64,000 nucleotides of DNA. Source: Acidobacteriota bacterium (lineage in GTDB: Bacteria; Acidobacteriota; Blastocatellia; Pyrinomonadales; Pyrinomonadaceae). The position numbers were made by a program, and so were the translations under genes. This document shows, piece after piece, positions 25,388 through 63,916 of this stretch. The notes beneath the pieces were generated by a model. It saw only the letters and a program-made list of their open reading frames with translations. It did no database searches and was not told where the DNA came from. Numbering within the stretch: position 1 is the first letter of the stretch; each line of letters opens with the position of its first letter. The DNA lies in the NCBI GenBank assembly GCA_020846885.1, contig JADLDC010000267.1, forward strand, positions 5,308-69,307, written 5' to 3'.

Positions 25388-26539
25388 TCAGCTTCGGCCT
25401 CCTGCTACGCTTTTTAGTTTTCGGGTTTCGGGTTCGGTGTCTTTTTCGAGGAAGCGGGCGAGGACGCGGGGTTCGCCTTTTTTGTAGGCTTCGATCAGGC
25501 CGCGGTTGGCGAGGTTGCCGATCGCGAGCGGGGAGCCGGATTGTGCGGCGATGATGCGGACGGCGGCGGGTTCGAAAAGAGCGTCGGCGTCGCCGCCGGC
25601 AAGGCGGACTCGGTGTGCGATGTAATCGGCGGCGTATTTGGCCATTGACGGCATGTTGAGGACCTGGACGCGTTCGGCGATCTCGCGGAATTCGATATTT
25701 TCGAGTTTCTCGGCCTTGAACCGCGGCTGGCCGAAACAGATAACCGAAAGGAACCGCTCGTAACCGCCGGTGCCCATTTCGAGAAAGTTTTTGAGCGCGG
25801 TTAGCGTATTGTTCGAAAGGCGGTGGACCTCGTCGATGAATAGCGAAATGCGCTGGCCGTTGTCGGTCAGGTTCTGGAGATGGCGTTCAAGCTGGACCTG
25901 TGCGAGCGGGAGACGGATGCGGCCTTTCTGGCCGAAATATTCGAGCATAAAATGGACGATGCCGGCGGCATTTAGCTTTCCCATTTCGACGAATTTTGGA
26001 AAGATCAGATGCGTCTTACCCTCGGTGCGAAGCCGGTCGGCGATACGTGCCTTGAGCGTTGATTTACCGCACCCGATATCACCGAGGACGCAGATGAAGT
26101 CTTGGTGTTTGACGGCCATTTCGACGATGCGGACGATGCGGTCGAGTTCCTTTGTTGTGAGTACCTCGGCGGCATTTCGGGGGTCGGTTGCGGCCGCGAA
26201 CGGGTCGCGGTCGAGATTGAAAAACTCGATCATTTCAGGGTCGAGCTTTGAGCGTTCGGTCATCATAGGTTCATAGGCCTCCTCAAAAATTTGTTCCAGG
26301 ACACGGTTGATCTCGTGGACAGGTTTGCCGCGGTCCTCTAAAAAGCGTTGGCAGTATCGGATGACGTGCGGGCCGATCTTCTTCCACTGTGTCGGGCTGA
26401 TGCCGTCGCCGAAATTCGGTTTGGTGAGCCGGTGGATAGTGGACGTACTGATCAGCCCGGACGGGTGGCAATAATGCTCGAACTCGCGGACGGATGTCGC
26501 GTTGTCGGCGAGAAATTGTTTGAATGCGTCATGGTTCAT
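25388..26539 (-). CDS. MuB/TniB-like AAA+ ATPase, transposition target-capture protein
   Basis: Walker A GDIGCGKST and Walker B LFIDEVH. It has an N-terminal HTH-like region and lies downstream of the DDE transposase, as in Mu A-B. Confidence 0.8.
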   Translation of the reverse strand: MNHDAFKQFLADNATSVREFEHYCHPSGLISTSTIHRLTKPNFGDGISPTQWKKIGPHVIRYCQRFLEDRGKPVHEINRVLEQIFEEAYEPMMTERSKLDPEMIEFFNLDRDPFAAATDPRNAAEVLTTKELDRIVRIVEMAVKHQDFICVLGDIGCGKSTLKARIADRLRTEGKTHLIFPKFVEMGKLNAAGIVHFMLEYFGQKGRIRLPLAQVQLERHLQNLTDNGQRISLFIDEVHRLSNNTLTALKNFLEMGTGGYERFLSVICFGQPRFKAEKLENIEFREIAERVQVLNMPSMAKYAADYIAHRVRLAGGDADALFEPAAVRIIAAQSGSPLAIGNLANRGLIEAYKKGEPRVLARFLEKDTEPETRKLKSVAGGRS

Positions 26540-26841
26540 AGGTCTTTCCGCCGCGCTGATCGAAACTGTTTAAATTCTTCAATGATCTGCCGCCAATTGT
26601 CCTTTTCGTCTTGAGAGGTTCCGACAATATCGCGAGTGATCCACTGAAATACGAAAGCATCCGACTCGGCCGCTTCGGCGGCTTCGAGGATCCCAAGAGC
26701 GTGTTCACGGGCTTCTCGCAGCCCCAGTTGAGCCGAGAGATCACCCCAATCAATCTGAACCAAGGGCTCAAAAGTTCGACCTGAAACAATGGATGTGACC
26801 GAGATCATCCCCTCAGCTTCCTTTCGATTTGCTATTCCCAT
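26536..26841 (-). CDS. hypothetical early protein
   Basis: 101-aa ORF with AAGGA upstream. Its stop overlaps the MuB-like start (ATGA). Confidence 0.5.
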   Translation of the reverse strand: MGIANRKEAEGMISVTSIVSGRTFEPLVQIDWGDLSAQLGLREAREHALGILEAAEAAESDAFVFQWITRDIVGTSQDEKDNWRQIIEEFKQFRSARRKDL

Positions 26842-26846
26842 TACAT

Positions 26847-27023
26847 TTATCCTTCGAGCTGTGCGATCAGCTCTTCGATGTCGTCCTCGTGCCAGAAACC
26901 TTTGATCGACCGGGCGAGTTGAAGCACGTCATGCTCGTCGATCAGTGATTCGAAAAGTTCAACGTTTTCCTCGGCGGTCAGAAGGCCGCGAATTTCATTT
27001 ATGCGTTCCAGATTTTTGCTCAT
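26847..27023 (-). CDS. hypothetical small acidic protein (58 aa)
   Basis: Below the track cutoff. AAAGGAG lies 7 nt before ATG 27023. Translation is MSKNLERINEIRGLLTAEENVELFESLIDEHDVLQLARSIKGFWHEDDIEELIAQLEG. Confidence 0.45.
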   Translation of the reverse strand: MSKNLERINEIRGLLTAEENVELFESLIDEHDVLQLARSIKGFWHEDDIEELIAQLEG

Positions 27024-27035
27024 GAATTACTCCTT

Positions 27036-28823
27036 TTAGCTAACGGCCGCGAGCCGTTGATCGGCTGCGGGTTTTGGGTTGTTAAAGGCCGTTTCGAGAT
27101 CGGCCTCGGTGATGAAGGTTTCGCCGGCGAAGATCTCGACGAGACGGGATTTGATCTCGGTTAGCTCGGCGCATGGTTCGGACGGTGCACGGCCGTCGCG
27201 TTGGAGAAGTTCGAGGGCGTCGAAGAGGTCGATGCTCCGATCGAGGAGGCCGGCCGCTGCGGCTCCCGGTTCTGACAGGAAATGGGTCAATTCGTTCAGG
27301 CGGTCGGTGTCGCCGGTTTCGATTCGCCGCGGAAAATCGAGTATTTTTTCGCCGCGTTCGGCTTCGGCGATTTCGGTGTCGAGGCCGGGGACGATAAGAG
27401 GCACACTCCCCGCGGCCCGTGTTTCCGCCTTCAGGGCCGCGACGCGTTCCTTCTGTGAGGCCTTGAGAGCCTTTCTCGTCGTTTTGCCGCGTGTTTCGGG
27501 AAGAGATTTTTGCACGCCGACGGTGTCAGCTACGGCGACGACCTTTTGAATTGTGTATTGATCGCCGGCCGGCGTGACGCAGGCAAAGAAATCGTCGTCA
27601 TCGACCCAGTAAACCTCGATCTTTTGGCGGGCGACGGCGAGTTCCTGAAACGGAAATTCAGCTTTACGTGAAAGCTGATAGCGAACGCCGTCAACGCTGA
27701 TGGTGATATCCGGATGGATGCGGAGCAGGAGGTCGCGAGCCTTGAAAGCGGCGTCGAATTGATCAGGGTCGATCTTTCGAAAGGGATTGGTTGTCGCGCG
27801 GAAAGCGACGTTTGGGGCGATGCCGGTTGAGCGGTGCGTTCGGCTGTTGTCACGCTGGCAGATCAGATCAGCAAGCGTATTGAGTTTTTCGATCGTGGGT
27901 GCGTTGCCGAATTCGACCTTTATGCCGATCAGCTTTTCGTACTCTTCGATAGATTGATGCATGCGCTCGACCTTGCCGGTGGCCTGAGGACGGCCGGGCT
28001 CGTGCTGGAGCATTCGGAAGCCGCCAGAATCGGCAAATGCCTGGTTAAGGAAGTCGGCTCCGCGCCGTGTCCGCTTGTTGACGATAATGCTGTCGTTGTC
28101 GGTGTAAAGGATGAACGGGAGACCGAGAGTGCCAAACGCCTCTCTTAGAAAATCAACGACATGGACGGTATTCGCTTTCTGACAAGCGACGAACCGGATG
28201 AACTTCTTTCGGCTCTTGTCGTCGATCAGCGAAAATTTCCAAACGGGAACGCGGTCCATGCGGCGGTTGGGGTGATTTTTTGAAACATCGAGAACACCGG
28301 CCTTGAAAACGCGGCGGGTTTTAATGTCCATCCAGCGTTCCTTGACGCCGGAAATATCGAATTGGTAAACCTGGCCGGGAAACTCGGCCTCGAATGGTCG
28401 GTATGTCATACGCTGTGTTTGTGTCTGAACGCGGCTGATGCCGTGTTGGCGCAGATAGCGGCGGACGGTGCCGAGGCTGATCGCCGGAAGGTCGCCGAAT
28501 AAGTGAGGGTTGGTCTGGACGGTCATCGCCGCAAGCTCGGGCGAGACGCCCTGATTGGAGACGAATTCGGCGATGCCGCGAGTGGCGGAATTGCCCAATA
28601 GATCGACCTTTCGTTTTCCGGCGTCGGAGCGTTTTTTACGTCCAGGGCGAGCGGCCCTGGAAGCGGCGTAGATCCGCTCTTTATGAACACCGTAAAAGGA
28701 TGCCAGTGCCGCTACTTCGGCGGCGAGGCGAGGGCCTTTAAGCCCGGCGAGTCCGCGGGAGATATCTTGTCGATCGGTGTCGGATAATTTATACTTAGGC
28801 ATAGAAAGCGATCGTTTTCTCAA
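27036..28823 (-). CDS. DDE (rve-type) transposase, MuA-like
   Basis: Catalytic triad context QFDISG ... LYTDNDS ... GKVERMHQS. N-terminal HTH-like DNA-binding region. The track start is TTG 28823, and ATG 28802 (MPKYKL) is an alternative. Confidence 0.88.
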   Translation of the reverse strand: MRKRSLSMPKYKLSDTDRQDISRGLAGLKGPRLAAEVAALASFYGVHKERIYAASRAARPGRKKRSDAGKRKVDLLGNSATRGIAEFVSNQGVSPELAAMTVQTNPHLFGDLPAISLGTVRRYLRQHGISRVQTQTQRMTYRPFEAEFPGQVYQFDISGVKERWMDIKTRRVFKAGVLDVSKNHPNRRMDRVPVWKFSLIDDKSRKKFIRFVACQKANTVHVVDFLREAFGTLGLPFILYTDNDSIIVNKRTRRGADFLNQAFADSGGFRMLQHEPGRPQATGKVERMHQSIEEYEKLIGIKVEFGNAPTIEKLNTLADLICQRDNSRTHRSTGIAPNVAFRATTNPFRKIDPDQFDAAFKARDLLLRIHPDITISVDGVRYQLSRKAEFPFQELAVARQKIEVYWVDDDDFFACVTPAGDQYTIQKVVAVADTVGVQKSLPETRGKTTRKALKASQKERVAALKAETRAAGSVPLIVPGLDTEIAEAERGEKILDFPRRIETGDTDRLNELTHFLSEPGAAAAGLLDRSIDLFDALELLQRDGRAPSEPCAELTEIKSRLVEIFAGETFITEADLETAFNNPKPAADQRLAAVS

Positions 28824-33765: not shown

Positions 33766-34575
33766 ATGTCGAAATCACGTCAGGGCAAAAATACGACAAT
33801 CTCGAATTATCCAGGCATGTGGGAGCGCATTACTGACGCGCTCGCGACTATTAGGACCAATGAAATTGCGTCGGCTTTAGAGGTTTCGGTGTCCCTTGTC
33901 TCTGACTGGAAAGCGGGGAGAGCGTTCCCGACCCTGGTTCATTTGTTCAAGATTGCGGAAATAGGACACACGTCGCTCGACTGGATTGTAACTGGCGAAT
34001 CCCCGAGGAACCTCGAAATAAAAGTCGATGACCAACTCACATCCTTCTCAGGAATCGATCGAAGATTCATTTTGAGTTTAGCCAACGAGAATGGGGCCAC
34101 CATCGAAGAGACGGTCCGACGTTTGGTCAATGACGGGCTTGCTGCCCACGGGCACGTAAAACCGGAGTTGGAGGAATTACGAGAAGCCGACTGGAAGACA
34201 ATACTGCTGATATTGAAGCGAATCGACAACATGCCCAGGGCGGATAGTCACAATTTCGGAATGAAGCTGATCAATCTTGTCGTAAACAAGCTCATTCGAA
34301 CGTCGGTTAAGGACCGGCAGGCTGAGCCTCAGGATTTTGGAACGGTCGATGAATTCGACTTTTCACGTGCAATGGAGGAGACAAACGATCCGCATGAAAT
34401 TATGCGGCGTTGGTTTACGAGCGAAGGGCGTGAATATCCGGAAGACTTTGGCGTCGTGTTCTTTCAAGGATGGGAAAGTTTCTCCGAGCAAGAGAAGCTC
34501 GACGCTATTAACGATGCGAAGAAGGTGCTCGACAGGACGTTGAAATCTCGAAAAGGAGCGAAAACAAAACGATGA
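33766..34575 (+). CDS. phage repressor-like XRE-family HTH protein (no S24 peptidase domain seen)
   Basis: N-terminal HTH NEIASALEVSVSLVSDWKAGRAFPTLVHLFKIAEIGHTSLDWIVTGE. It is divergent from the early operon. Confidence 0.7.
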   Translation: MSKSRQGKNTTISNYPGMWERITDALATIRTNEIASALEVSVSLVSDWKAGRAFPTLVHLFKIAEIGHTSLDWIVTGESPRNLEIKVDDQLTSFSGIDRRFILSLANENGATIEETVRRLVNDGLAAHGHVKPELEELREADWKTILLILKRIDNMPRADSHNFGMKLINLVVNKLIRTSVKDRQAEPQDFGTVDEFDFSRAMEETNDPHEIMRRWFTSEGREYPEDFGVVFFQGWESFSEQEKLDAINDAKKVLDRTLKSRKGAKTKR

Positions 34576-44432: not shown

Positions 44433-46634
44433 ATGTCCGCTCTCGAAGATCTACTCAAAAAACATCGGCAGCGGATCGCGACGCGTGAGGCGGCGGCGTT
44501 TCGTGAAATGCTGGCGGCGTACGAGCCGATCGAGCGGGAACTGCAAAGCTCGTATCGGGACCTCCAGAAAAAGATCAAAGCGGCCCAGGCAGCGGGCGAA
44601 ACGATCAGCCCCTCGTGGTTTTATCGCGAACGGCGGTTGAAGCTGCTGCTGGAACAGGTGCGGGAACAGATCGAGCGGTTTGGCCGGAACGCGGCCCCGA
44701 TCGTCGAGCGGGAACAGCGCGAGGCGATACGGATAGCGATAGAGCAGGAGAGAGAGACGGTCCGGCTTGTCGCCGGGCCCGCAAACTCAAGTTTGCGGGA
44801 CATTGGGAGCCAGCTTTCGCATCGGGTTGTCGAGAACGCGGTCGGGATGATGGGCGACGGCTCGCCGATACTGAGCTATTACGCCGAGAACTTAGCGCCG
44901 GCGGTCGCCGAAAAGCTCAAAAGCGAAGTGATCAAGGCGGCGGCGATGGGAACGGATTTTAGCACGATCGCCCGACGGCTGGCGGCGACGGGCGAGATCA
45001 CCAGGCGGCGGGCGTTGACAATGGCACGGACGGAGGTGAACCGCGTGAGGCGGGAGGCGAAGCGGCAGTTCTATGAGGACCATTCAGACGTGATCAGCGG
45101 ATGGGAGTGGATAGCGTCCAAGAGCACACGGACCTGTGTGGTGTGCCTGGCAATGGACGGCACGGTGCATAAATTAAAGGAAGAGTTTCCGCAGCATATT
45201 AATTGTTTGACAGCGGGCACAATAGTTTGTTCGCCGGAAACTCGGACGGCGACCCGAAGATTTTACGAAGGCGATGTTGTGGAGATCGAAACGTCAAGCG
45301 GCCTTCGGCTGACCGTCACCCCAAATCATCCGATAATGACGCGGAATGGCTGGGTAGCGGCGGACCCCATTGAGAAAGGAAACTATGTAGTCGGCACAGG
45401 CGACGGACAAAGGGTGTGTATTGATATCAATCCACACGTAGACAACAAACCATCCGTTGTCGATCAGATATTTATTGCGGCGATGGAACGCCGCGGCATG
45501 ATATCCGAAGTTGTGCCACATTCCCCCGCAAATTTCCACGGCGACGGGAAAGGCAGCGATGTCGATGTTATATTTATCGACCGCCATCTGAGGCGTGATC
45601 TGGATTCCGCGTTCGGTAAGCCAGCGGCCGAGACGCAGTTCATAAGCGGACGCGAAGGTCTGGGAGTGTTGGCGGGACAAAGCCCGTTTGACGAGCTGTT
45701 CATGCGGCACCTTCCGCCCTCGGACCGCATCATGAGCGGCCTTGACATTTCGAGCGTTTTCCCCGGGCGTCCGCTGTTCCATCATCATGCGGTTGGCATC
45801 AAGAACAGATCGGATCGGGACGCCTATCTCGATGAGGCGACGCCGTATCACCTGACGCGACACTCCGAAATGTTTAGCGAGGGCGTTCTCGGAGGTTCCA
45901 CTTTTGTATCGGGAAGCAAGTTCGGCGGTGGGAAGGTCATGGCGATTAGTACAGGTGATTCCGCGTTCCTTCAAAATTCCGTAGAAGCGGCGGGAAGCGA
46001 CATTGAATTTTGCCGCGATTTCCTTAACAGGCACTCCGTCAATGTAAGCCTTGATCGCGTCGTCAAGGTTAGTCGGTATTTTTATCGCGGTCATGTTTTC
46101 AACCTTGAGACATCCACTGGATATTATATCGCGAATGGCATAGTGACCCATAATTGCCGGTGCAACATTATCGCCGTGATCGACGGTGTTGAGCGGGAAC
46201 CGCGGACGACGGCCGGTGAATGGTTTCACGGCCAACCGGCGGACGTGCAGGAAAAGATATTGGGCAAGGACGCTCTTGCGGCATACAAGAGAGGTGATGT
46301 GGACCTTTCTGATTTTGTCGGGTACTCGACGCACCCGGCGTTCGGAGTCAGCGTAAAACGCCGGAAGCTGGCGGATGCACTTGGCAAGGCGGTGCATGAC
46401 GACGCGCGGGAATATGAAGGAATTCTGCAAGCCGCGGGATACGGCACGAAGCGAGTTAAGACCAAGAGCACAAACTCGGTGTACATCGTGGTTGATATAA
46501 ACGGGGTCCGCGGAAAGATAAGGGTCTCAGACCATGCGGCGGCACGGACGGACAATATTCTGGACCTGCGGCCGAGCAAGAAGATCACAAAAGAGAAGCT
46601 GATCGAAGGCGTTGACAGGCACTTTGGCAGGTAA
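44433..46634 (+). CDS. MuF-like / SPP1 gp7-family head morphogenesis protein interrupted by an intein
   Basis: The exteins give ...CVVCLAMDGTVHKLKEEFPQHIN|CRCNIIAV..., the conserved MuF motif. The intein is at 45204-46154. Confidence 0.85.
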   Translation: MSALEDLLKKHRQRIATREAAAFREMLAAYEPIERELQSSYRDLQKKIKAAQAAGETISPSWFYRERRLKLLLEQVREQIERFGRNAAPIVEREQREAIRIAIEQERETVRLVAGPANSSLRDIGSQLSHRVVENAVGMMGDGSPILSYYAENLAPAVAEKLKSEVIKAAAMGTDFSTIARRLAATGEITRRRALTMARTEVNRVRREAKRQFYEDHSDVISGWEWIASKSTRTCVVCLAMDGTVHKLKEEFPQHINCLTAGTIVCSPETRTATRRFYEGDVVEIETSSGLRLTVTPNHPIMTRNGWVAADPIEKGNYVVGTGDGQRVCIDINPHVDNKPSVVDQIFIAAMERRGMISEVVPHSPANFHGDGKGSDVDVIFIDRHLRRDLDSAFGKPAAETQFISGREGLGVLAGQSPFDELFMRHLPPSDRIMSGLDISSVFPGRPLFHHHAVGIKNRSDRDAYLDEATPYHLTRHSEMFSEGVLGGSTFVSGSKFGGGKVMAISTGDSAFLQNSVEAAGSDIEFCRDFLNRHSVNVSLDRVVKVSRYFYRGHVFNLETSTGYYIANGIVTHNCRCNIIAVIDGVEREPRTTAGEWFHGQPADVQEKILGKDALAAYKRGDVDLSDFVGYSTHPAFGVSVKRRKLADALGKAVHDDAREYEGILQAAGYGTKRVKTKSTNSVYIVVDINGVRGKIRVSDHAAARTDNILDLRPSKKITKEKLIEGVDRHFGR
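44778..44799 (+). repeat. palindrome family variant CCCGCAAACTCAAGTTTGCGGG (followed by ACATTGGG)
   Basis: 10-bp perfect arms with two compensated arm changes. The trailing ACATTGGG matches tandem copy 2. Located inside the MuF-like CDS. Confidence 0.8.
45204..46154 (+). other. intein (317 aa) in the MuF-like gene
   Basis: Block A CLTAGTIV, block B LTVTPNHPIMTRNGWVAADPIEKGNYV, blocks F/G HVFNLETSTGYYIANGIVTHN followed by +1 Cys. The flanks reconstitute H-I-N-C-R-C. Confidence 0.85.
45294..46094 (-). CDS. antisense-encoded HTH plus Vsr/DUF559-like PD-(D/E)xK endonuclease (putative homing endonuclease), nested in the intein
   Basis: ATG 46094 (AAGG 9 nt upstream). Two HTH-like segments (VKEIAAKFNVASRRFYGILKERGI and ALAKHFGVSRQVIRRRLIEIGV). 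Nuclease core YNIDIAAFPVAVEICGGMWH ... HRRNKYLIDNGWFVVYVW fits the D..E.DG..H...R..L...GW.V.R pattern. Confidence 0.65.
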   Translation of the reverse strand: MTAIKIPTNLDDAIKAYIDGVPVKEIAAKFNVASRRFYGILKERGITCTNRHDLPTAELASRYKSGTSENALAKHFGVSRQVIRRRLIEIGVPIRSVLDANRMMMEQRTPGENARNVKAAHDAVRGRKVPHEQLVKRALSRQHSQTFASAYELRLGRWLTERGIQITPQMAVDKYNIDIAAFPVAVEICGGMWHNFGYHAAAFHRRNKYLIDNGWFVVYVWIDINTHPLSVACADYIVSFLNGVRRYPAIPRHYRMIWGDGQPKAA

Positions 46635-57223: not shown

Positions 57224-60200
57224 ATGGCTGATCTCAAAATTTCAATTGATCTTGATTCGAGCGGTGTAAAGACCGGGGCGGCGGCGGTGCGGTCGGAGAT
57301 GAGATCGCTGGCGGCGATCGATCTTACGCGGCTAAAGGCACAACTGGCGGCGATCGGGCCGCAGATCAAGGAGATCGGGAACCAGCTTCGCGGAATGGGA
57401 ACTGCTCTGACGGCTGGATTGTCGCTGCCGCTCGCGGGGCTTGCAACGCTTGGGGTGAAATCGGCGTTGGAGCTGGACGCGGTGCGAACGAAGATCACGG
57501 CACTTGTGGGCGACGCCGAGAATGCGAACGCGAAGATCGCGGAATTGCGCGATCTCGCGGGCAAAAGCGTCGGCGTGACGCAGGCGGCGGCACTTGAGAC
57601 ATTTGCCCAGTTAAAAGGGATCGGCGGGATCGCGGACGAATCGATAAACAAGATCATCGGGAGCCTGGGCAAACTGAACGCGGCGTTCAAGGTCGAAGAC
57701 CAGGCGGGTTTCCTGCGCAATCTGACGCAGATATTCAGCCAGGGCTTTGAGATCGCGGACATCAAGGAAGCGATCGGGCGGGTACCGATCTTTCGGCAAC
57801 TGCTGACACAGGCATTTGGGACGGATGACCCGGAGAAGCTAAAGCAGCTAAAGGACGCGGGCAAGCTGACGCTTGACGGGTTTCTGACGGGAGTTTCGGA
57901 CGCGATAAACAGCGACCCGCGGACGGCGAACATCGGCGAGAATCTGACAACGAAACTGGCCAAGGGAATGGAACGGCTGAATGTCGCCCTGGCGCCGATC
58001 GGGCAGGTGATCCTGGATGTGATCGTTCCGATAATCGAGCAGGCAACGCCGTATATCGAGGCACTGGCCAAGTGGTTTTCGGGCCTCTCGAAACCGGTGC
58101 AGACGGCGATCGTCGCGGTTGCGGCATTCGCGGCGGCGATCGGGCCCGTGCTGATCATTGTCGGCTCGCTGGTAGCGGCGATCGGAACATTGATCGGGTC
58201 AGCGACTGGAATAGGCATTGCGATATTGGCTGTGATGGGGATCATTGTCCAGCTTGGGCCGCTGCTGGCCGTCGTCAGTGCTGAAGTCTATCTGCTGTAT
58301 AAGGCATGGGATACCAATTTTAAGGGGATACGAACGCTCACGGTCGAAACGATCGCGACCGTAAGAGCGGCAATAGACGCGGGGCTCGCGGCGATCACAG
58401 CCTTTTGGGAACGCCACGGCACGCGGATCAAGGAAGTCGCGAGAGCGGCGTGGAACACCGTAAGTTCGGTTGTTTCGGCCGCGATGGGCGTTTTGGGAAA
58501 CGTTGTTCGGCTGGGCCTGCAGATCGTCAACAGAAACTGGTCGGGAGCCTGGCAAACATATCTGGACATCGTCAGGGAGGCCGGCCGTCTGGTGGGCGAG
58601 ATCATTTCGGGAATGCATGAGGTGATCCGAACGATCCTGGCTGCCGTGCTGCCGGTCATTGTCGAGTATGGATCTCAATTCATATCTGCCATGGCGGCCT
58701 GGGCGACGCGGGCTGTGACAAGGGCTGCCTTGATACTTGCAACTCTTCCCGCTCAACTGATTCGATTGGTCCCGCGGCTAATAGCGGCGGGCCGCTCGAT
58801 AGCATCGGCTATATGGGAAGGCATTAAGGCTGGTCTGGCCGCCGGTGCCGAAGCTCAGGCTGGAGGCGAGATCGCGTTTGCCGGGGCACAGGCCGGCGGG
58901 TCGGTACTTGGTGCGTTGACGGCCGGGATCGGAAATATCGCGGGCGATGCGGCAAAGGCCGGACAGGCGGCGGCGAAGGCATTGACGCCAATACAGGAGC
59001 TGCGGCGGCAACTGGCCGACGCACAGGCGGCATACGATCTTCTGGCCAACAACGGCGAAGCTCAGAGGCTGACGGTTGAGACGGCAAAGCTTCAAGAGCA
59101 AAAGGGAGCGTTGGAAGAACTATTAAGACTGCGTGACACCGCCAATATCAACCGGGACCGTGAGCTGCCAAAAACTCTGGCCGGGATCAACGCGGAAATC
59201 GAGGGCATCCGGAAAATATCGCAGGCGGCGAAAGACGCCAAGGATGCGAAAGAGCGGTTGAGAGAGGCACTTGCGGCGAAAGAAGCTTCGATAATCTCGT
59301 CCGGGCGTGATGATCGGACGCGGATCGATGGAGAGATCGCGCAGTTGAATCAGCAGATCGCTTTTGGACGCGAGCTGACGGATGTTGAGAAAGTGATGAT
59401 CCAGAACCGGGTCGAGCTAAAGCTGCTGCAGGGGCAGCTGGCGGACACGGGAGCGTCAGACGCTCAGATCATGGCGGTCGTTCAGCAAATGGAAGAACAG
59501 CAAAAGCTGAATTTGGCGAAGCAGACGGAACTTCAACTCGCCCGCGAGATCGCGGATGCCCAACGAGCGGGCCGCGGACTGATCGCCGATCTTGATGGGG
59601 AAATTGCGGGCTTGAACGTGCAGCTCGGTCTTTCGGCCGAATTGTCGCGGGCGGATGCAGCGGCAAAGTTTTTGCAGACGGAAGCAGGCAAGAAGCTGGA
59701 TGACGCGACGCGGGCGTTGATCATTGCAAAGGCACAGGAGATCGACCGGCTGCGGGAACTGGCACAGGCACAGGCAGAGGCGAGGCGGCAGTATGACGAA
59801 GTTTTCAACACGGTCCGCGACAGCCTTGACGTGCTGGCAAATGAGGGTTTTGGCGGTTTCTTTAAGAGTGTCATCAATAAGTTTCAGAGCTTTCTTCGGG
59901 ATATGCTGGCGGAGTGGCTGACGAGTCAATTCTTTCAGTTGATGAACAAGGGCGGTGGAATTGGGCAGGGAGCGGGAGCATCGGGTTCGGGCGGCGGCTG
60001 GATGTTCGGGTCGATATTGAACGGGCTATTTGGGAAAGGTTCGGGCGGAATGGGGCCGGGCGGAACGCCGATGTACAACGGGAACAGTTCGGGCGGGTTC
60101 AGTTTTGGCGGCGGTTCGGGTATTTCGGCGGGCGACACGCGGATCTACGATCTTAACGGAAACGTGGCCGGCGGATCGCGTGGGGGCGGATCGGGCGGCG

Positions 60201-61057
60201 GCTTTCTCGGAAGCGTCGGCGGGTTGGCGGGCGGGCTTTCGCTGGCCGGTGCGGGAGCAAGCATGCTCGGCGGAATGATCGGCGGACGCGTCGGCGGGTT
60301 TATTTCAAACATCGGGACCGGTGTAGCCCTTGGAGCACAAATTGGTTCGATCATCCCAGGCATCGGCACTGTGGTCGGTGCGGTGGTCGGCGGTGCGGTC
60401 GGGTTTTTCGCCTCGCTATTCGGCGGCGATCCGAAGCGGAAGCGGGATAAGAAGGAGAAGCTGCCGCAGTTGAATCGCGGGTTTACGGACAGCCTGGCCG
60501 AGCTGCGGCAGTTGATCGGGGATGTGCGGACACTGCGTGTTTCGCCGGACTCGGCGTTGGCCAAGGCGACGGAGCTGCGGAGCCAGATCGCCAGTGGTTT
60601 CGGCATCCAGTTCGAGTCAAAGAAATATCGCAATATAGCCGCAGATCTGATCAGGCGGCGGCTCAGCGAAGCGGACGCATTGATCGTCGAGCTAAGGCAG
60701 GCGGCCGAGGTCGCACGTGCGGCCGGCGAACGCGAGCGGCGCATACTGCCGGAGTTTGCGGCGGGCGGTTTTCCACGGGTTGGCCAGGTGTCGCTAGTCG
60801 GCGAACGCGGGCCGGAGCTGTTCGTGCCGAACGTTTCAGGGCGGGTAATTTCGAACGATGAAACTCAAAAGATACTGAACGGCCGAGGCGGCGGCGAACC
60901 GATAACGGTCGTGCTGCAGGTGGAACACACGATCGACTCGGAAGGGATGGTACACACGCAGGTTAAGAATTCGTCAAAAGTACAGCGTGAGATAAAGGTG
61001 GTTGTTCAGGACCAGTTCAGGAACAGCGAGATCGATACGAGACGGAGAGGTATTTGA
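57224..61057 (+). CDS. tail tape measure protein
   Basis: 1277 aa. Ala/Gly-rich TM-like central block, long coiled coils and Gly-rich low-complexity segments, in the canonical position. Confidence 0.85.
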   Translation: MADLKISIDLDSSGVKTGAAAVRSEMRSLAAIDLTRLKAQLAAIGPQIKEIGNQLRGMGTALTAGLSLPLAGLATLGVKSALELDAVRTKITALVGDAENANAKIAELRDLAGKSVGVTQAAALETFAQLKGIGGIADESINKIIGSLGKLNAAFKVEDQAGFLRNLTQIFSQGFEIADIKEAIGRVPIFRQLLTQAFGTDDPEKLKQLKDAGKLTLDGFLTGVSDAINSDPRTANIGENLTTKLAKGMERLNVALAPIGQVILDVIVPIIEQATPYIEALAKWFSGLSKPVQTAIVAVAAFAAAIGPVLIIVGSLVAAIGTLIGSATGIGIAILAVMGIIVQLGPLLAVVSAEVYLLYKAWDTNFKGIRTLTVETIATVRAAIDAGLAAITAFWERHGTRIKEVARAAWNTVSSVVSAAMGVLGNVVRLGLQIVNRNWSGAWQTYLDIVREAGRLVGEIISGMHEVIRTILAAVLPVIVEYGSQFISAMAAWATRAVTRAALILATLPAQLIRLVPRLIAAGRSIASAIWEGIKAGLAAGAEAQAGGEIAFAGAQAGGSVLGALTAGIGNIAGDAAKAGQAAAKALTPIQELRRQLADAQAAYDLLANNGEAQRLTVETAKLQEQKGALEELLRLRDTANINRDRELPKTLAGINAEIEGIRKISQAAKDAKDAKERLREALAAKEASIISSGRDDRTRIDGEIAQLNQQIAFGRELTDVEKVMIQNRVELKLLQGQLADTGASDAQIMAVVQQMEEQQKLNLAKQTELQLAREIADAQRAGRGLIADLDGEIAGLNVQLGLSAELSRADAAAKFLQTEAGKKLDDATRALIIAKAQEIDRLRELAQAQAEARRQYDEVFNTVRDSLDVLANEGFGGFFKSVINKFQSFLRDMLAEWLTSQFFQLMNKGGGIGQGAGASGSGGGWMFGSILNGLFGKGSGGMGPGGTPMYNGNSSGGFSFGGGSGISAGDTRIYDLNGNVAGGSRGGGSGGGFLGSVGGLAGGLSLAGAGASMLGGMIGGRVGGFISNIGTGVALGAQIGSIIPGIGTVVGAVVGGAVGFFASLFGGDPKRKRDKKEKLPQLNRGFTDSLAELRQLIGDVRTLRVSPDSALAKATELRSQIASGFGIQFESKKYRNIAADLIRRRLSEADALIVELRQAAEVARAAGERERRILPEFAAGGFPRVGQVSLVGERGPELFVPNVSGRVISNDETQKILNGRGGGEPITVVLQVEHTIDSEGMVHTQVKNSSKVQREIKVVVQDQFRNSEIDTRRRGI

Positions 61058-61072
61058 TGAAGTCAACGGAGA

Positions 61073-61126
61073 GGAACCACCCCGTCCGCCCAAAGCGGCG
61101 TCCACCCCTCCTCAGACAAGGAGGGG
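61073..61126 (+). repeat. structured element C: GGAACCACCCC box, CCGC-CCAAA-GCGG hairpin, then CCCCTCCT-CAGACA-AGGAGGGG hairpin
   Basis: It ends 10 nt before ATG 61137. Confidence 0.8.
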
Positions 61127-61136
61127 AGCCGGAATA

Positions 61137-62273
61137 ATGGCAAGACCGATGACATCTCCGCTGCAGGCATTGCTTGATCTCGGCTCGTGCAACACGCAGA
61201 CGACGTTGAGCCTGTATCCGGTTTCGGGCAGTCCGGTCCACATCGCGACTGACGCGTTTAACGCGGACGGCAAGGACTTTACGGCCGACCTGCGAAAGAC
61301 GGACGACATTCGCCAAACGATCGGGGCAACGCCCGATCGCGTTAATGTGCAGATCCAGAATGTGGATAAGGCGTTCGGCCTGACATTGAGCTCAGAATCG
61401 CTGGCCAAGGCGACGGCGGTCGTCGGGCGTTTTTTTCGAAAGGAAAACGATCTCGGTGTCAGCGAGTGGAGAGAGCTTTTCCGCGGCCAGGCCGTGCCGA
61501 TTGAGATACTGGACGGGTCGGCGAGGATAGAGGTTTTGCACGATCTGGTCGCGGCGGGCTATTGCGTGGCCGCATGGAGCCTGGGCGAAAACTGCCAGCT
61601 TGTTTACAAGCATGCCGGAACGTGCGGTTTTACGGGAGCCGACCCGACCTGCAACAAGAAACGAAAATCACTGCAGGGCTGTGCCGGAAAGATCGTCACG
61701 GGCACGACAACGAACGAATATCGGTTCGGCGGAATGGAGTTTCCTGACGTTCAGGTACCGGAGCCGCCGAGCGGCGGGACCGGAGGTGGAGGCGGAGTTG
61801 GCCATCCGACGTGTCCGCGGCTGGACCAGTGGGTACGCGTCAGGGGCCGCGGCTGGCTGCCGGTGCCGAAACAGGTCGGCAAACTGACCGTGGCCGATGA
61901 GCTTTACCATCCGATCTGGAAAACGTTTCACGCGATCGGGTCGGCGGTGATCATTCCGGGGCAGCGGATATGGGGCATCGTCGCGACAAACTTCGCACGC
62001 GGATACTCGTCGTTTTCGCACCCGGTATTTCCTGACCGCAAACATTCGGCCGGAATTCCGGTCTCGCGGGTCGCCGGCCATCACTCGTTATTGACATGGA
62101 ATTCCGGCGAGCTTTCGGACACGTCGGTCGGCTCATCGTTCGATACCGGAAAAACGGGCGACGTGATGGAGATCAAAATGGCCGACGGCCACGTTTACTG
62201 TTATTCGGACACTCCGGATGGCCCGTATATCGTGTGCCACAACTCAAAGCCGATCGCCCCGGACCTTCTTTAA
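61137..62273 (+). CDS. gpL-like / DUF2163-like tail-tip protein with a C-terminal Hint (intein-like) domain
   Basis: The Cys cluster CQLVYKHAGTCGFTGADPTCNKKRKSLQGC...NEYRFGGMEFP resembles the Fe-S motif of lambda gpL-type proteins. A Gly-rich linker and a Hint domain follow. Confidence 0.6.
   Translation: MARPMTSPLQALLDLGSCNTQTTLSLYPVSGSPVHIATDAFNADGKDFTADLRKTDDIRQTIGATPDRVNVQIQNVDKAFGLTLSSESLAKATAVVGRFFRKENDLGVSEWRELFRGQAVPIEILDGSARIEVLHDLVAAGYCVAAWSLGENCQLVYKHAGTCGFTGADPTCNKKRKSLQGCAGKIVTGTTTNEYRFGGMEFPDVQVPEPPSGGTGGGGGVGHPTCPRLDQWVRVRGRGWLPVPKQVGKLTVADELYHPIWKTFHAIGSAVIIPGQRIWGIVATNFARGYSSFSHPVFPDRKHSAGIPVSRVAGHHSLLTWNSGELSDTSVGSSFDTGKTGDVMEIKMADGHVYCYSDTPDGPYIVCHNSKPIAPDLL
61812..62243 (+). 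other. Hint / bacterial-intein-like domain (144 aa) at the C-terminus of the tail-tip protein
   Basis: It starts with Cys (HPT|CPRLDQWVRVRG...GKLTVADEL). Block B-like SSFSHPVF. It ends VMEIKMADGHVYCY...GPYIVCHN|S. Only 9 residues follow. Confidence 0.6.
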
Positions 62274-62275
62274 TT

Positions 62276-63916
62276 ATGCCGCTGATAAATCATTTAAAAG
62301 GTGTTGACGCTCAGAACATGTTTCTGGCGGTTGCCTACGGCAAGCATGTGGTCGCCGGCCACCTGACCAAATCGCTGATCACCGGGGCATCAGGCAGCCA
62401 CACGATCAAGCTGCAGCAACTGCTTGGCCGCGGGCCGTGGGATGGCTGTGAAGGCCTCTGGTTCAAAGGCCTGGAAATTACGCCGGCGAACTACAAGTTC
62501 TATCCGGGTATTCAATCGACCGGAATGGGCGACACAACGCAGGGCCAGGACACGGTATTCTCGACAGACACTCCGCACAGCGGCGTCGCATGGATACGGG
62601 CAACGCTGGCGACGGGCGTGGGTGATTTCGATACAAAGAATTCACCGCCTCTGGGCCTTAGCGGGATCTTCAGGACAATGAAGATACAGGACTATGACGA
62701 CATAGGCGACCCGGACGGCGTGCTCGGATATTCAGCGAATCCGGCTTTGGAAGTTGCGGACCTCATCCTTCGCATAGGCGGGCGGCCGGCGTCGAGAATT
62801 CACTGGCCGACATGGGTTGAATGGCGTGATTTTCTGGCCGCCGCGATCCCGCATGACTACACGGCGTTGCCGGGGCAGGACGGGTTTGGACTGCGCGGAG
62901 AATATTACAACGGGGCCAGTTTTAACACGTTGGTCTTTGACCGGATCGATCCGGTCATTGAATTCCCGTTGTCCGCCGGATCGCCGGGAATCGGGATCAA
63001 TGTCGATAACTTCAGCGTCCGATGGGAAGGCAAGATCAAGCCGATGTACACGGAAACGTACACCTTATATATTACACACGATAACGGAGGCAAGCTCTGG
63101 GTCAATAATCTGTCCGTTCCGCTGATCGACCAATGGGGTACGACGGGCACGCATTCCGCGACGATCGCCCTGACGGCCGGCCAGTTTTACGATATCAAGG
63201 TCGAGTGGAACGGGACCGGAGGCAGTGAGGAATTGAGGCTCGAATGGCAAAGCACATCGCAGAACCGCGAGGTCGTATCGCATCGGGCGTTGTACCCCAA
63301 AACCGTCAACCGGCCGCGCTATGAAACGCATCCCTTTTTTGCCGGACCTACGCGACTGGACGACGCCGTGCGGACGATCCTGAACCTGTGCAATTCGACC
63401 TATCAGGAAGTGGATGGCAAGCTGCGGTTTTTCTGCCTCGAACAGCTCGCAACTAAAACCTTCCAGTTCACCAACGACAAGATCGTAAATGGGCAGGTTC
63501 GGGTAATTCCGCGTGATGTTTCAAACCTGCGAAACTCATGGCAGGCGAAGTTTCGCAATCTTGATTCGCAGTATGTTGAAGAAGACCTCGACCCGATCAA
63601 TATCGAACGCGATGCCCTGATAACCGCGGCCGGACGCAAGATCGACGGTGAGGCGATAGATCTGTTCAACTGCAACCGCCACCAGGCCTATCGAACGCTG
63701 GACAACTATATCAAGCGTACGGTTGACAGCAAATTTGACTTTGAACTGGACGGCACCGCGGACACGTTTCAGGTGCTCGCCGGCGATCGCGTCGGCGTAG
63801 ATGTCGAGTTTTTGAATTGGACGAACAAGGACGTGCTTGTGCTGGGATCAAACGACGCATCGTCGGAAGAAACCGCCGACGAAAGGCGTTTTGTGATGCA
63901 GGAATGGACGCTCTAA
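62276..63916 (+). CDS. tail-tip / host-specificity protein carrying a PA14 carbohydrate-binding domain
   Basis: The PA14 signature GLRGEYYNGASFNTLVFDRIDPVIEF...FSVRWEGKIKPMYTETYTLYITHDNGGKLWVNN...YDIKVEWNGTGGSEELRLEW lies at about 62888-63250. Confidence 0.7.
   Translation: MPLINHLKGVDAQNMFLAVAYGKHVVAGHLTKSLITGASGSHTIKLQQLLGRGPWDGCEGLWFKGLEITPANYKFYPGIQSTGMGDTTQGQDTVFSTDTPHSGVAWIRATLATGVGDFDTKNSPPLGLSGIFRTMKIQDYDDIGDPDGVLGYSANPALEVADLILRIGGRPASRIHWPTWVEWRDFLAAAIPHDYTALPGQDGFGLRGEYYNGASFNTLVFDRIDPVIEFPLSAGSPGIGINVDNFSVRWEGKIKPMYTETYTLYITHDNGGKLWVNNLSVPLIDQWGTTGTHSATIALTAGQFYDIKVEWNGTGGSEELRLEWQSTSQNREVVSHRALYPKTVNRPRYETHPFFAGPTRLDDAVRTILNLCNSTYQEVDGKLRFFCLEQLATKTFQFTNDKIVNGQVRVIPRDVSNLRNSWQAKFRNLDSQYVEEDLDPINIERDALITAAGRKIDGEAIDLFNCNRHQAYRTLDNYIKRTVDSKFDFELDGTADTFQVLAGDRVGVDVEFLNWTNKDVLVLGSNDASSEETADERRFVMQEWTL

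Follow-up and report, generated by a model that had tools for sequence, protein, structure and literature searches.

Evidence for a C-terminal Hint domain in the gpL-like tail-tip protein of an Acidobacteriota prophage

The tail-tip gene and its C-terminal module

Here, we describe a prophage gene in a 64,000-nucleotide stretch of DNA (hereafter the window) from a Pyrinomonadaceae member of the Acidobacteriota (GenBank assembly GCA_020846885.1, contig JADLDC010000267.1, positions 5,308 to 69,307 of the forward strand). The gene encodes a 378-residue tail-tip protein with a lambda gpL-like body and a 144-residue C-terminal module of predicted Hint fold, which is likely to cut itself out of the protein after translation. 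It lies in an open reading frame (ORF) at 61002-62273 (+) that closes with a stop codon at 62271-62273 (Table 1), and its start at ATG 61137 is accepted because homologues begin at the same Met (M1 kept in at least 90%) and GGAGGGGAG lies upstream. An exact-sequence look-up found no record of the 378-residue protein; 61 homologues were collected, the majority being full-length, with alignments over 89-100% of the query. An earlier, sequence-only reading of the window had set this gene after the tape measure gene and had divided its product into a gpL-like body with a four-Cys cluster, a Gly-rich linker and a module that begins at Cys226, holds an SSFSHPVF block, ends in IVCHN at Asn369 and is followed by a nine-residue tail starting with Ser (SKPIAPDLL). 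This layout is borne out: a 1277-residue ORF sits immediately upstream, the four Cys are invariant in the 61 homologues, and the module and tail read from the DNA as described. The linker, which runs into Cys226 through PSGGTGGGGGVGHPT with Thr225 at position -1, is 19-30 residues long in all relatives and variable in sequence.

Table 1. Coordinates, in the window, of the tail-tip gene, its parts and other prophage features (AF2, AlphaFold2; pLDDT, predicted local distance difference test; aa, amino acids).
Feature	Position	Strand	Basis or remark
Whole gene, gpL / hub HDI-like tail-tip protein with C-terminal Hint module	61137..62273	+	378 aa plus stop codon
Body, residues 1-203, lambda gpL / RcGTA g13 / T5 pb3 N-terminal-like domain	61137..61745	+	AF2, Foldseek, Pfam matches of relatives
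Four Cys (C153, C163, C172, C182), putative [4Fe-4S] site as in lambda gpL	61593..61682	+	Invariant in 61 homologues
Gly/Pro-rich flexible linker DVQVPEPPSGGTGGGGGVGHPT, residues 204-225	61746..61811	+	pLDDT <50
Putative autoprocessing module of Hint fold, 'CPRxDQ' type, residues 226-369 (144 aa)	61812..62243	+	AF2, Foldseek, hhalign
Cys226, block A nucleophile (Cys1), followed by an invariant Pro	61812..61814	+	Cys in 60/60
Block B, S292-F-S-H295 (SSFSHPVF), TxxH equivalent	62010..62021	+	His295 in 60/60
Block F-like strand DVMEIKMADGHVYCY	62160..62204	+	Aligns to 'VYNFEV..HxYFANG' of canonical-Hint relatives
Block G, I-V-C-H368-N369, terminal His-Asn	62229..62243	+	Asn in 123/123
Cys367 (V-C-H-N), two residues before the terminal Asn	62235..62237	+	Kept in 44/60
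C-terminal flank SKPIAPDLL (9 aa); Ser370 = +1, potential nucleophile; Lys371 = +2, conserved	62244..62270	+	
Tape measure protein, 1277 aa, immediately upstream	57224..61057	+	ORF
Tail protein, 546 aa, with PA14 domain at residues 205-333, downstream	62276..63916	+	Pfam PA14, E 1.2e-21
MuF-family head morphogenesis protein, 733 aa, with a 317-aa intein at 45204-46154	44433..46634	+	Class-1 intein motifs
AAA_22 ATPase (382 aa) and adjoining 594-aa ORF	25388..28823	-	594-aa ORF without Pfam match
CI-like repressor	33766..34575	+	Host-proximal side of the prophage
Protein with glycosyl hydrolase family 46 (chitosanase-like) domain, 393 aa	36674..37855	+	E 6.5e-14

The assignment of the module to the Hint superfamily is supported by predicted structure, by conservation and by transitive homology. 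An AF2 model of the full-length protein has pLDDT 91-98 over residues 226-370, and a model of the module alone reaches pLDDT 94.9 with a predicted template-modelling score (pTM) of 0.89. When the module model was compared with the PDB using Foldseek, the best 50 matches were all Hint-superfamily structures, namely inteins, bacterial intein-like (BIL) domains and Hedgehog proteins (probability 1.00; query-normalised TM-score (TMq) 0.55-0.75, mostly at least 0.64). The top match is the Tetrahymena BUBL BIL2 domain (E 1.7e-6), and the best superposition is on the gp41-1 intein (6QAZ; target-normalised TM-score (TMt) 0.82, root-mean-square deviation 2.8). Other matches include the C. thermocellum BIL domain 2lwy (TMq 0.67, TMt 0.73), the M. 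chimaera DnaB intein and the Hedgehog structures 1at0 and 6tyy (TMq 0.69-0.70).

The residues expected of a working Hint domain are kept across great divergence. Among 60 module-bearing homologues, with modules 11-62% identical to that of the window, Cys1, the block-B His and the terminal Asn are present in all 60 and the penultimate His (position of His368) in 57, and position 292 is Ser in 53 and Thr in 5; the sequence-only reading had held that loss of Cys1 and of the final His-Asn in homologues would speak against a Hint domain. Block B aligns with 'T.EH' of a canonical clade and with SHPVL of the Pho RadA intein. That clade provides the link to known families: seven relatives with bodies 42-50% identical carry, at the same site, a different 'canonical' module (CF.G.T ... 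T.EH ... H.YFANG..V(H/S)N), and modules of this type match Pfam PT-HINT (PF07591, best E 3.4e-12), Hint, Intein_splicing, Hint_2 and Vint. Alignment of the window's module type with the canonical type by hhalign gave 91% probability (E 1e-6) over blocks B, F and G.

Direct searches with the window's protein were less informative. Pfam searches of the whole protein and of the module alone found nothing even at E=10, and PHROGs searches of both gave no useful match at E up to 10, a tail tube family match at E 0.04-0.15 being judged noise. A module profile run against PDB sequences drew only weak intein matches (E 0.019 and 0.08), including the Pho RadA intein over block B; designed Kelch-like proteins at the top of that search rest on a 'DGHIYA.G' repeat and were set aside as spurious. 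The sequence-only reading had allowed that its Hint, BIL or mini-intein identification would be refuted by a missing fold prediction or a missing hidden Markov model (HMM) match; the HMM match is indeed missing in Pfam and PHROGs, and the Hint fold is predicted with confidence. The assignment stands, because fold and homologues outweigh the failed direct search.

The body is modelled at pLDDT of about 90 for residues 10-135, and its Foldseek matches are lambda gpL (8iyk_L, E 9.8e-5), an RcGTA virion chain (6tba_7A) and a T5 tail-tip chain (7zqp_b); the full model also matched a DT57C baseplate chain. The 378-residue protein has no match to Pfam Phage_tail_L or Phage_phiJL001_Gp84_N, and three relatives each show weak matches to Phage_tail_L and to Gp84_N ('baseplate hub protein, N-terminal attachment domain'). 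Together, the model and these weak matches support the body as a gpL-like tail-tip domain, as the sequence-only reading had proposed, and place it beside RcGTA g13 as well. The four Cys, spaced x9, x8 and x9, lie in a region of low pLDDT and form a putative [4Fe-4S] site by analogy with lambda gpL.

Distribution and junctions of the module in the tail-tip family

To survey the family, an exhaustive HMMER search with the body only (residues 1-225) was run, yielding 218 representative clusters at E <=1e-3, and the best 150 of these were scored with HMMs of both module types. A C-terminal Hint domain of one of two very different types is present in 71 of the 150 representatives; 45 are proteins of 200-262 residues with no Hint domain, 18 exceed 620 residues, their body continuing into a large C-terminal region in the manner of single-chain hub proteins, and 16 are fragments or other forms. 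The Hint-bearing representatives and their close homologues make up a set of 123 proteins, 76 with a 'CP' type and 47 with a 'CF' type of module, the two types being mutually only 11-15% identical. Cys1 opens the module in 122 of the 123, as Cys-Pro in 76 and as Cys-Phe or Cys-Leu in 46. A module profile searched against a set of 5.8 billion proteins added a single protein, an N-terminally truncated member of the same tail-tip family (P0062), and the CPRxDQ module type was seen in no other architecture in that search. BFVD entry A0A516L6G1 (363 residues) aligns along the entire length of the model, and the combination of body and Hint domain thus probably exists, unnamed, in public databases.

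The module is patchily distributed and not tightly bound to its body. On a rough neighbour-joining tree of 178 bodies, the four states (CP, CF, none, long) need at least 32 changes, compared with a mean of 88 for shuffled labels. Some relatives have bodies 31-32% identical and modules 40-42% identical, and others have bodies 50% and modules 14-15% identical; overall, module and body identity are weakly correlated (r=0.33), with the two module types discordant with body similarity. The tree and these identities therefore indicate many gains, losses or exchanges of the module, in every case at one and the same site. GC and GC3 (GC at third codon positions) of the module equal those of the body, which rules out a compositionally foreign module and, together with the lack of room for a homing endonuclease in 144 residues, points to long residence.

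A comparison with gpL-like orthologues that lack the module had been suggested by the sequence-only reading, and one is at hand in P0055 (235 residues). Its body is 50% identical, it ends 19 residues past the Gly-rich run, and its stop codon overlaps the ATG of the next gene; the order at its loci is a long tail protein (weak PhageMin_Tail match), P0055 and a PA14 protein. Two further members are irregular. In the 930-residue P0088 (L009, 2417-5209), the body, the Hint domain, a 10-residue tail and the PA14 protein are joined in frame (...FAVSN|RKDDIFAIKN-MPYFDLL...), which could be a self-cleaving polyprotein of natural origin or else reflect the loss of a stop codon in one metagenomic contig; if the fusion is real, cuts at two junctions would free two tail proteins from one polyprotein. 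In P0091 (L007, 3001-4118, also L008), a 240-residue ORF in a prophage remnant among cellular genes stops 21 residues into the module, and a separate 130-residue ORF in another frame holds the rest, with SxxH and HN-SK motifs intact. P0091 was therefore rejected as a clean truncation allele, a stop or frameshift having split the module into two ORFs, and most likely represents decay, with a split arrangement as the less probable reading.

The two junctions differ in what is conserved around them. In the 123 Hint-bearing proteins, the terminal Asn is present in all, preceded by His in 109, by Ser in 13 and by Lys in 1. Ser or Thr occupies the +1 position in 56 (24 of the 71 representatives); the counts are Ser 52, Ala 23, Arg 12, Lys 10, Asn 7, Leu 6, Val 5, Thr 4 and others, such that 67 of the 123 (54%) lack a +1 nucleophile. 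The C-terminal flank has a median length of 8 residues (range 4-23) and carries a Lys at +2 in 103 proteins and at +1 in 10, in both module types, with Arg at +2 just once. The last 16 residues of 43 module-less tails, by comparison, hold 65 Arg and 7 Lys, and the nearest Hint relatives in other proteins, of polymorphic-toxin-type HINT (P0203-P0226), have Lys at +2 in none of 16 but Cys at +2 in 10 and at +3 in 4. From these flank comparisons, the Lys is specific to the tail-tip context, in the place where HINT relatives carry a thiol. A position-specific scoring matrix anchored on the Lys gave module-less tails higher scores than body windows (p=1.7e-5) but no higher scores than shuffled tails (p=0.31), and the idea that the nine-residue flank is homologous to module-less tails was dropped.

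Two side observations concern the same blocks. The HN-x-Cys of the polymorphic-toxin HINT domains suggests, on a small sample, a conserved nucleophile one residue past the classical +1 position. All 44 module-bearing homologues that keep Cys367 are of the CP type, the canonical type having Ala or Val there; the residue belongs to the block that makes up the active site together with Cys226, and a redox disulfide between the two is conceivable from the sequence.

Prophage setting and neighbouring genes

The element that carries the tail-tip gene is a prophage. Ordinary cellular genes (COX1, NrfD, a TPP enzyme and an FAD oxidase) occupy positions 1 to about 23 kb of the window, and from about 34 kb a CI-like repressor, TerL, an SPP1-type portal, MuF and a capsid protein follow. 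Relatives of the tail-tip protein were found in Pyrinomonadaceae (Acidobacteriota) metagenome-assembled genomes and on seven IMG/VR viral contigs, and tblastn against 50,697 isolated phage genomes gave no match. The order of long protein, tail-tip gene and PA14 protein is common to loci L001, L002 and L003, with a 1086-residue protein of weak PhageMin_Tail match in the tape measure position of L002 and L003. The PA14 protein is the downstream neighbour in every related locus examined and is probably the rest of the hub with a glycan-binding insertion. A frameshift fusion of the tail-tip gene to the PA14 gene was considered, the downstream frame being open from 62096, and was set aside since no supporting signal was found.

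The sequence-only reading was also correct that the MuF protein of this prophage contains an intein. It is a canonical class-1 intein (Cys258 ... TPNH ... VTHN574 / Cys575) that interrupts a conserved H-x-N-C-R-C motif, and inteins in this MuF-type minor capsid family (IPR006528) have already been reported for actinophages. The tail module has no detectable sequence similarity to the MuF intein of the same phage.

Three further features were noted in the element (Table 1). The AAA_22 ATPase and the 594-residue ORF form a pair reminiscent of the Mu-type transposition proteins B and A, the prophage has the CI-like repressor on its host-proximal side, and the family 46 glycosyl hydrolase is an unusual candidate lysis or wall-degrading enzyme.

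Proposed processing and its relation to known systems

We consider it likely, on sequence and modelled structure, that residues 226-369 form a catalytically competent domain, type-A-BIL-like or mini-intein, that excises itself post-translationally from the tail-tip protein. The chemistry that we infer would begin with attack of Cys226 on the Thr225 carbonyl, an N-to-S acyl shift that would leave a thioester at the end of the Gly-rich linker. Asn369, aided by His368, would cyclise and break the Asn369-Ser370 bond. Hydrolysis of the thioester could then lead to plain N-cleavage, with Thr225 as the last residue of the body. Alternatively, the thioester could be transferred to the short C-terminal peptide, with either the Ser370 side chain (class-1 splicing) or the freed alpha-amine as acceptor, the latter being the route proposed for type-A BILs. 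The products would be a mature protein of about 225-234 residues, comparable to lambda gpL (232 residues) and to the module-less P0055 (235 residues), and a free 144-residue Hint domain of about 16 kDa. By analogy with gpL, the linker and Hint domain would point outward and not into the DNA channel; in that orientation, the appended domain would be exposed and free to leave. The sequence-only reading had also raised cyclisation of the C-terminus, for which we find no support.

Both junctions appear to be processed, because the terminal Asn would have no reason to be invariant unless the C-terminal junction were cut, and the conserved Cys1 makes sense only if the N-terminal thioester forms. Class-1 splicing, judged by the presence of Ser370, is chemically open to the 378-residue protein. 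Exact class-1 splicing is not what selection maintains across the family, because the +1 nucleophile is dispensable. The family-wide selected outcome suggested by these residues is self-removal by cleavage at both junctions, with ligation optional because more than half of the members have no +1 nucleophile. Since about half of the wider family has a Hint domain at this site, tails of this kind probably undergo self-cutting as a regular part of their maturation, and we lean somewhat towards a domesticated maturation or assembly-timing step over a purely selfish element.

Several observations weigh against self-excision as set out here. The near-universal Lys at +2 or +1 (113 of 123) is not explained by it, and the insertion site is a variable Gly-rich linker nine residues from the C-terminus, unlike the conserved motifs occupied by classical inteins. 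The likeness of the flank to module-less tails is only compositional, and the case for an insertion restored by splicing is thus not made. A stop codon in the linker would do for mere removal, which leaves retention in about half of the lineages unaccounted for. The 378-residue sequence itself matches neither Pfam nor PHROGs, and the processing is argued from sequence and predicted structure.

A purely selfish class-1 mini-intein, splicing from Cys226 to His-Asn369 / Ser370 and restoring a 234-residue host protein, would bring no benefit to the phage and would simply be hard to lose. Such an element would account for the full class-1 set in the 378-residue protein (Cys1, SxxH, His-Asn, Ser+1), for the company of a classical intein in MuF, for the patchy presence and absence on the body tree (at least 32 state changes among 178 sequences), as is seen for mobile inteins, and for the weak and discordant relation of module to body identity (r=0.33). 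We nevertheless regard it as unlikely: with the +1 nucleophile missing in 67 of 123 proteins, exact splicing is not being maintained, and there is no homing endonuclease or remnant of one in the 144 residues. Its site is a variable linker instead of a conserved motif, the flank has no demonstrable homology to module-less tails, and a nonsense mutation near the C-terminus could easily delete the module, yet 71 of 150 representative clusters retain it. Hedgehog-like processing is a good deal less probable. In that scheme only the N-terminal thioester would matter, and an external nucleophile would attach the C-terminus of the tail-tip protein covalently to another tail protein, a glycan or a lipid, or would simply release it. 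The layout of functional N-domain, linker and terminal Hint domain is that of Hedgehog/Hog proteins, 1at0 and 6tyy are among the structural matches, and the top match, Tetrahymena BUBL BIL2, is a domain that ligates its flanking domain to lysines. Hedgehog chemistry, however, needs neither the terminal Asn found in 123 of 123 nor the nearly constant penultimate His, and the module has no sterol-recognition-like extension and no identified candidate acceptor.

The conserved Lys allows a further reading, which we hold to be improbable on the flank sequences: the Lys beside the C-terminal junction would accept the Cys226 thioester, and the Hint domain would perform lysine-directed ligation. If this were true, an isopeptide within the chain would give a body joined to a lariat tail, and ligation between subunits or to a neighbouring tail protein would lock the tail tip covalently; either would amount to a splicing class, built into a virion, in which an amine side chain acts as the nucleophile. 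Least credible of all is an inert structural or adhesion domain, a Hint fold kept on the virion as decoration after catalysis was lost. Accessory beta-rich domains are common on phage tail proteins, and no Pfam Hint model recognises the 378-residue sequence, but it is precisely the catalytic residues (Cys1, block-B His, terminal His-Asn) that stay invariant amid 11-62% module identity, and an inert domain would not preserve them.

In a literature search, inteins of phages were found in several kinds of protein (terminase, portal, MuF-type minor capsid, tape measure and others) and in no gpL-like tail-tip or hub protein, and the protein is on that search a new host context for Hint domains. In about half of a large, mostly metagenomic family the domain occurs, in one of two very different versions and with its site fixed, a distribution that seems to fit a maturation device under recurrent selection better than a stray selfish element. 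Pfam does not recognise the common CPRxDQ version, which hence goes unlabelled by standard annotation. An invariant Asn, an optional +1 nucleophile and a conserved +2 Lys offer a compact system for the tuning of Hint chemistry between splicing, cleavage and possibly amine ligation, and a small self-removing tag may be of biotechnological interest.

Compared with known systems, the gene resembles those of lambda gpL and RcGTA g13 in lying directly after the tape measure gene and in its fold matches (8iyk_L, 6tba_7A), and its product has four conserved Cys, as lambda gpL does (PMC10721106), with a module-less form of similar size (about 235 residues). Unlike lambda, where the Cys are spaced x8, x22 and x6, the spacing here is x9, x8 and x9, and the hub genes follow the tape measure gene with no gpM-like or gpK/gpI-like gene in between. 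Some phage tail spikes and fibres carry at their C-terminus an intramolecular chaperone domain (Peptidase S74; K1F endosialidase, T5 pb1) that cuts itself off after folding or assembly. The likeness to these is one of functional analogy only, the folds being unrelated and a Ser-Lys dyad standing in place of the Cys thioester and Asn cyclisation expected here, and nothing in the analysis shows a chaperone role for the Hint module. Hedgehog/Hog proteins (1AT0) likewise place a terminal Hint domain after a functional N-domain (TMq 0.69), but have a sterol-recognition extension and neither a terminal His-Asn nor cleavage at the C-junction, whereas the tail-tip family has an invariant Asn and a tail of 4-23 residues. 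The PT-HINT family (PF07591) is matched by the canonical module type at the same site in close relatives, and the nearest relatives of that type in other proteins are annotated as polymorphic toxin-type HINT; the window's module differs in having no PF07591 match and just nine residues, with no toxin domain, after it, and the tail-tip family has HN-x-Lys where the PT-HINT relatives have HN-x-Cys.

Class-1 mini-inteins such as the gp41-1 and Pho RadA inteins share blocks A, B, F and G with the module, along with Cys1, (S/T)xxH, His-Asn and Ser+1. The module departs from them in not lying within a conserved host motif, in a C-extein of just nine residues and in the absence of the +1 nucleophile from 54% of relatives; its module-less orthologues share the gene order, and their tails resemble the C-flank in composition, not in position (p=0.31). 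Type-A BILs have His-Asn and no +1 nucleophile, give mostly cleavage products and can ligate through a freed alpha-amine (PMC4031507; PMC7664689). In contrast to these domains, which reside in secreted bacterial proteins, the module resides in a virion tail-tip protein, 4-23 residues from the C-terminus across the family, and has its own N-terminal motif (Cys-Pro-Arg-x-Asp-Gln), a Ser at +1 in the 378-residue protein and a conserved Lys at +2 in the family. It is alike by structure (2lwy) and, at the level of the family, by definition: like the type-A BILs (Amitai 2003; Dassa 2004; 2LWY), it is a Hint fold of about 140 residues with Cys1, a C-terminal His-Asn and no endonuclease, set in variable flanking sequence with a +1 nucleophile that is not conserved family-wide, and from such a domain a mix of cleavage and amine-mediated ligation would be expected (PMC4031507).

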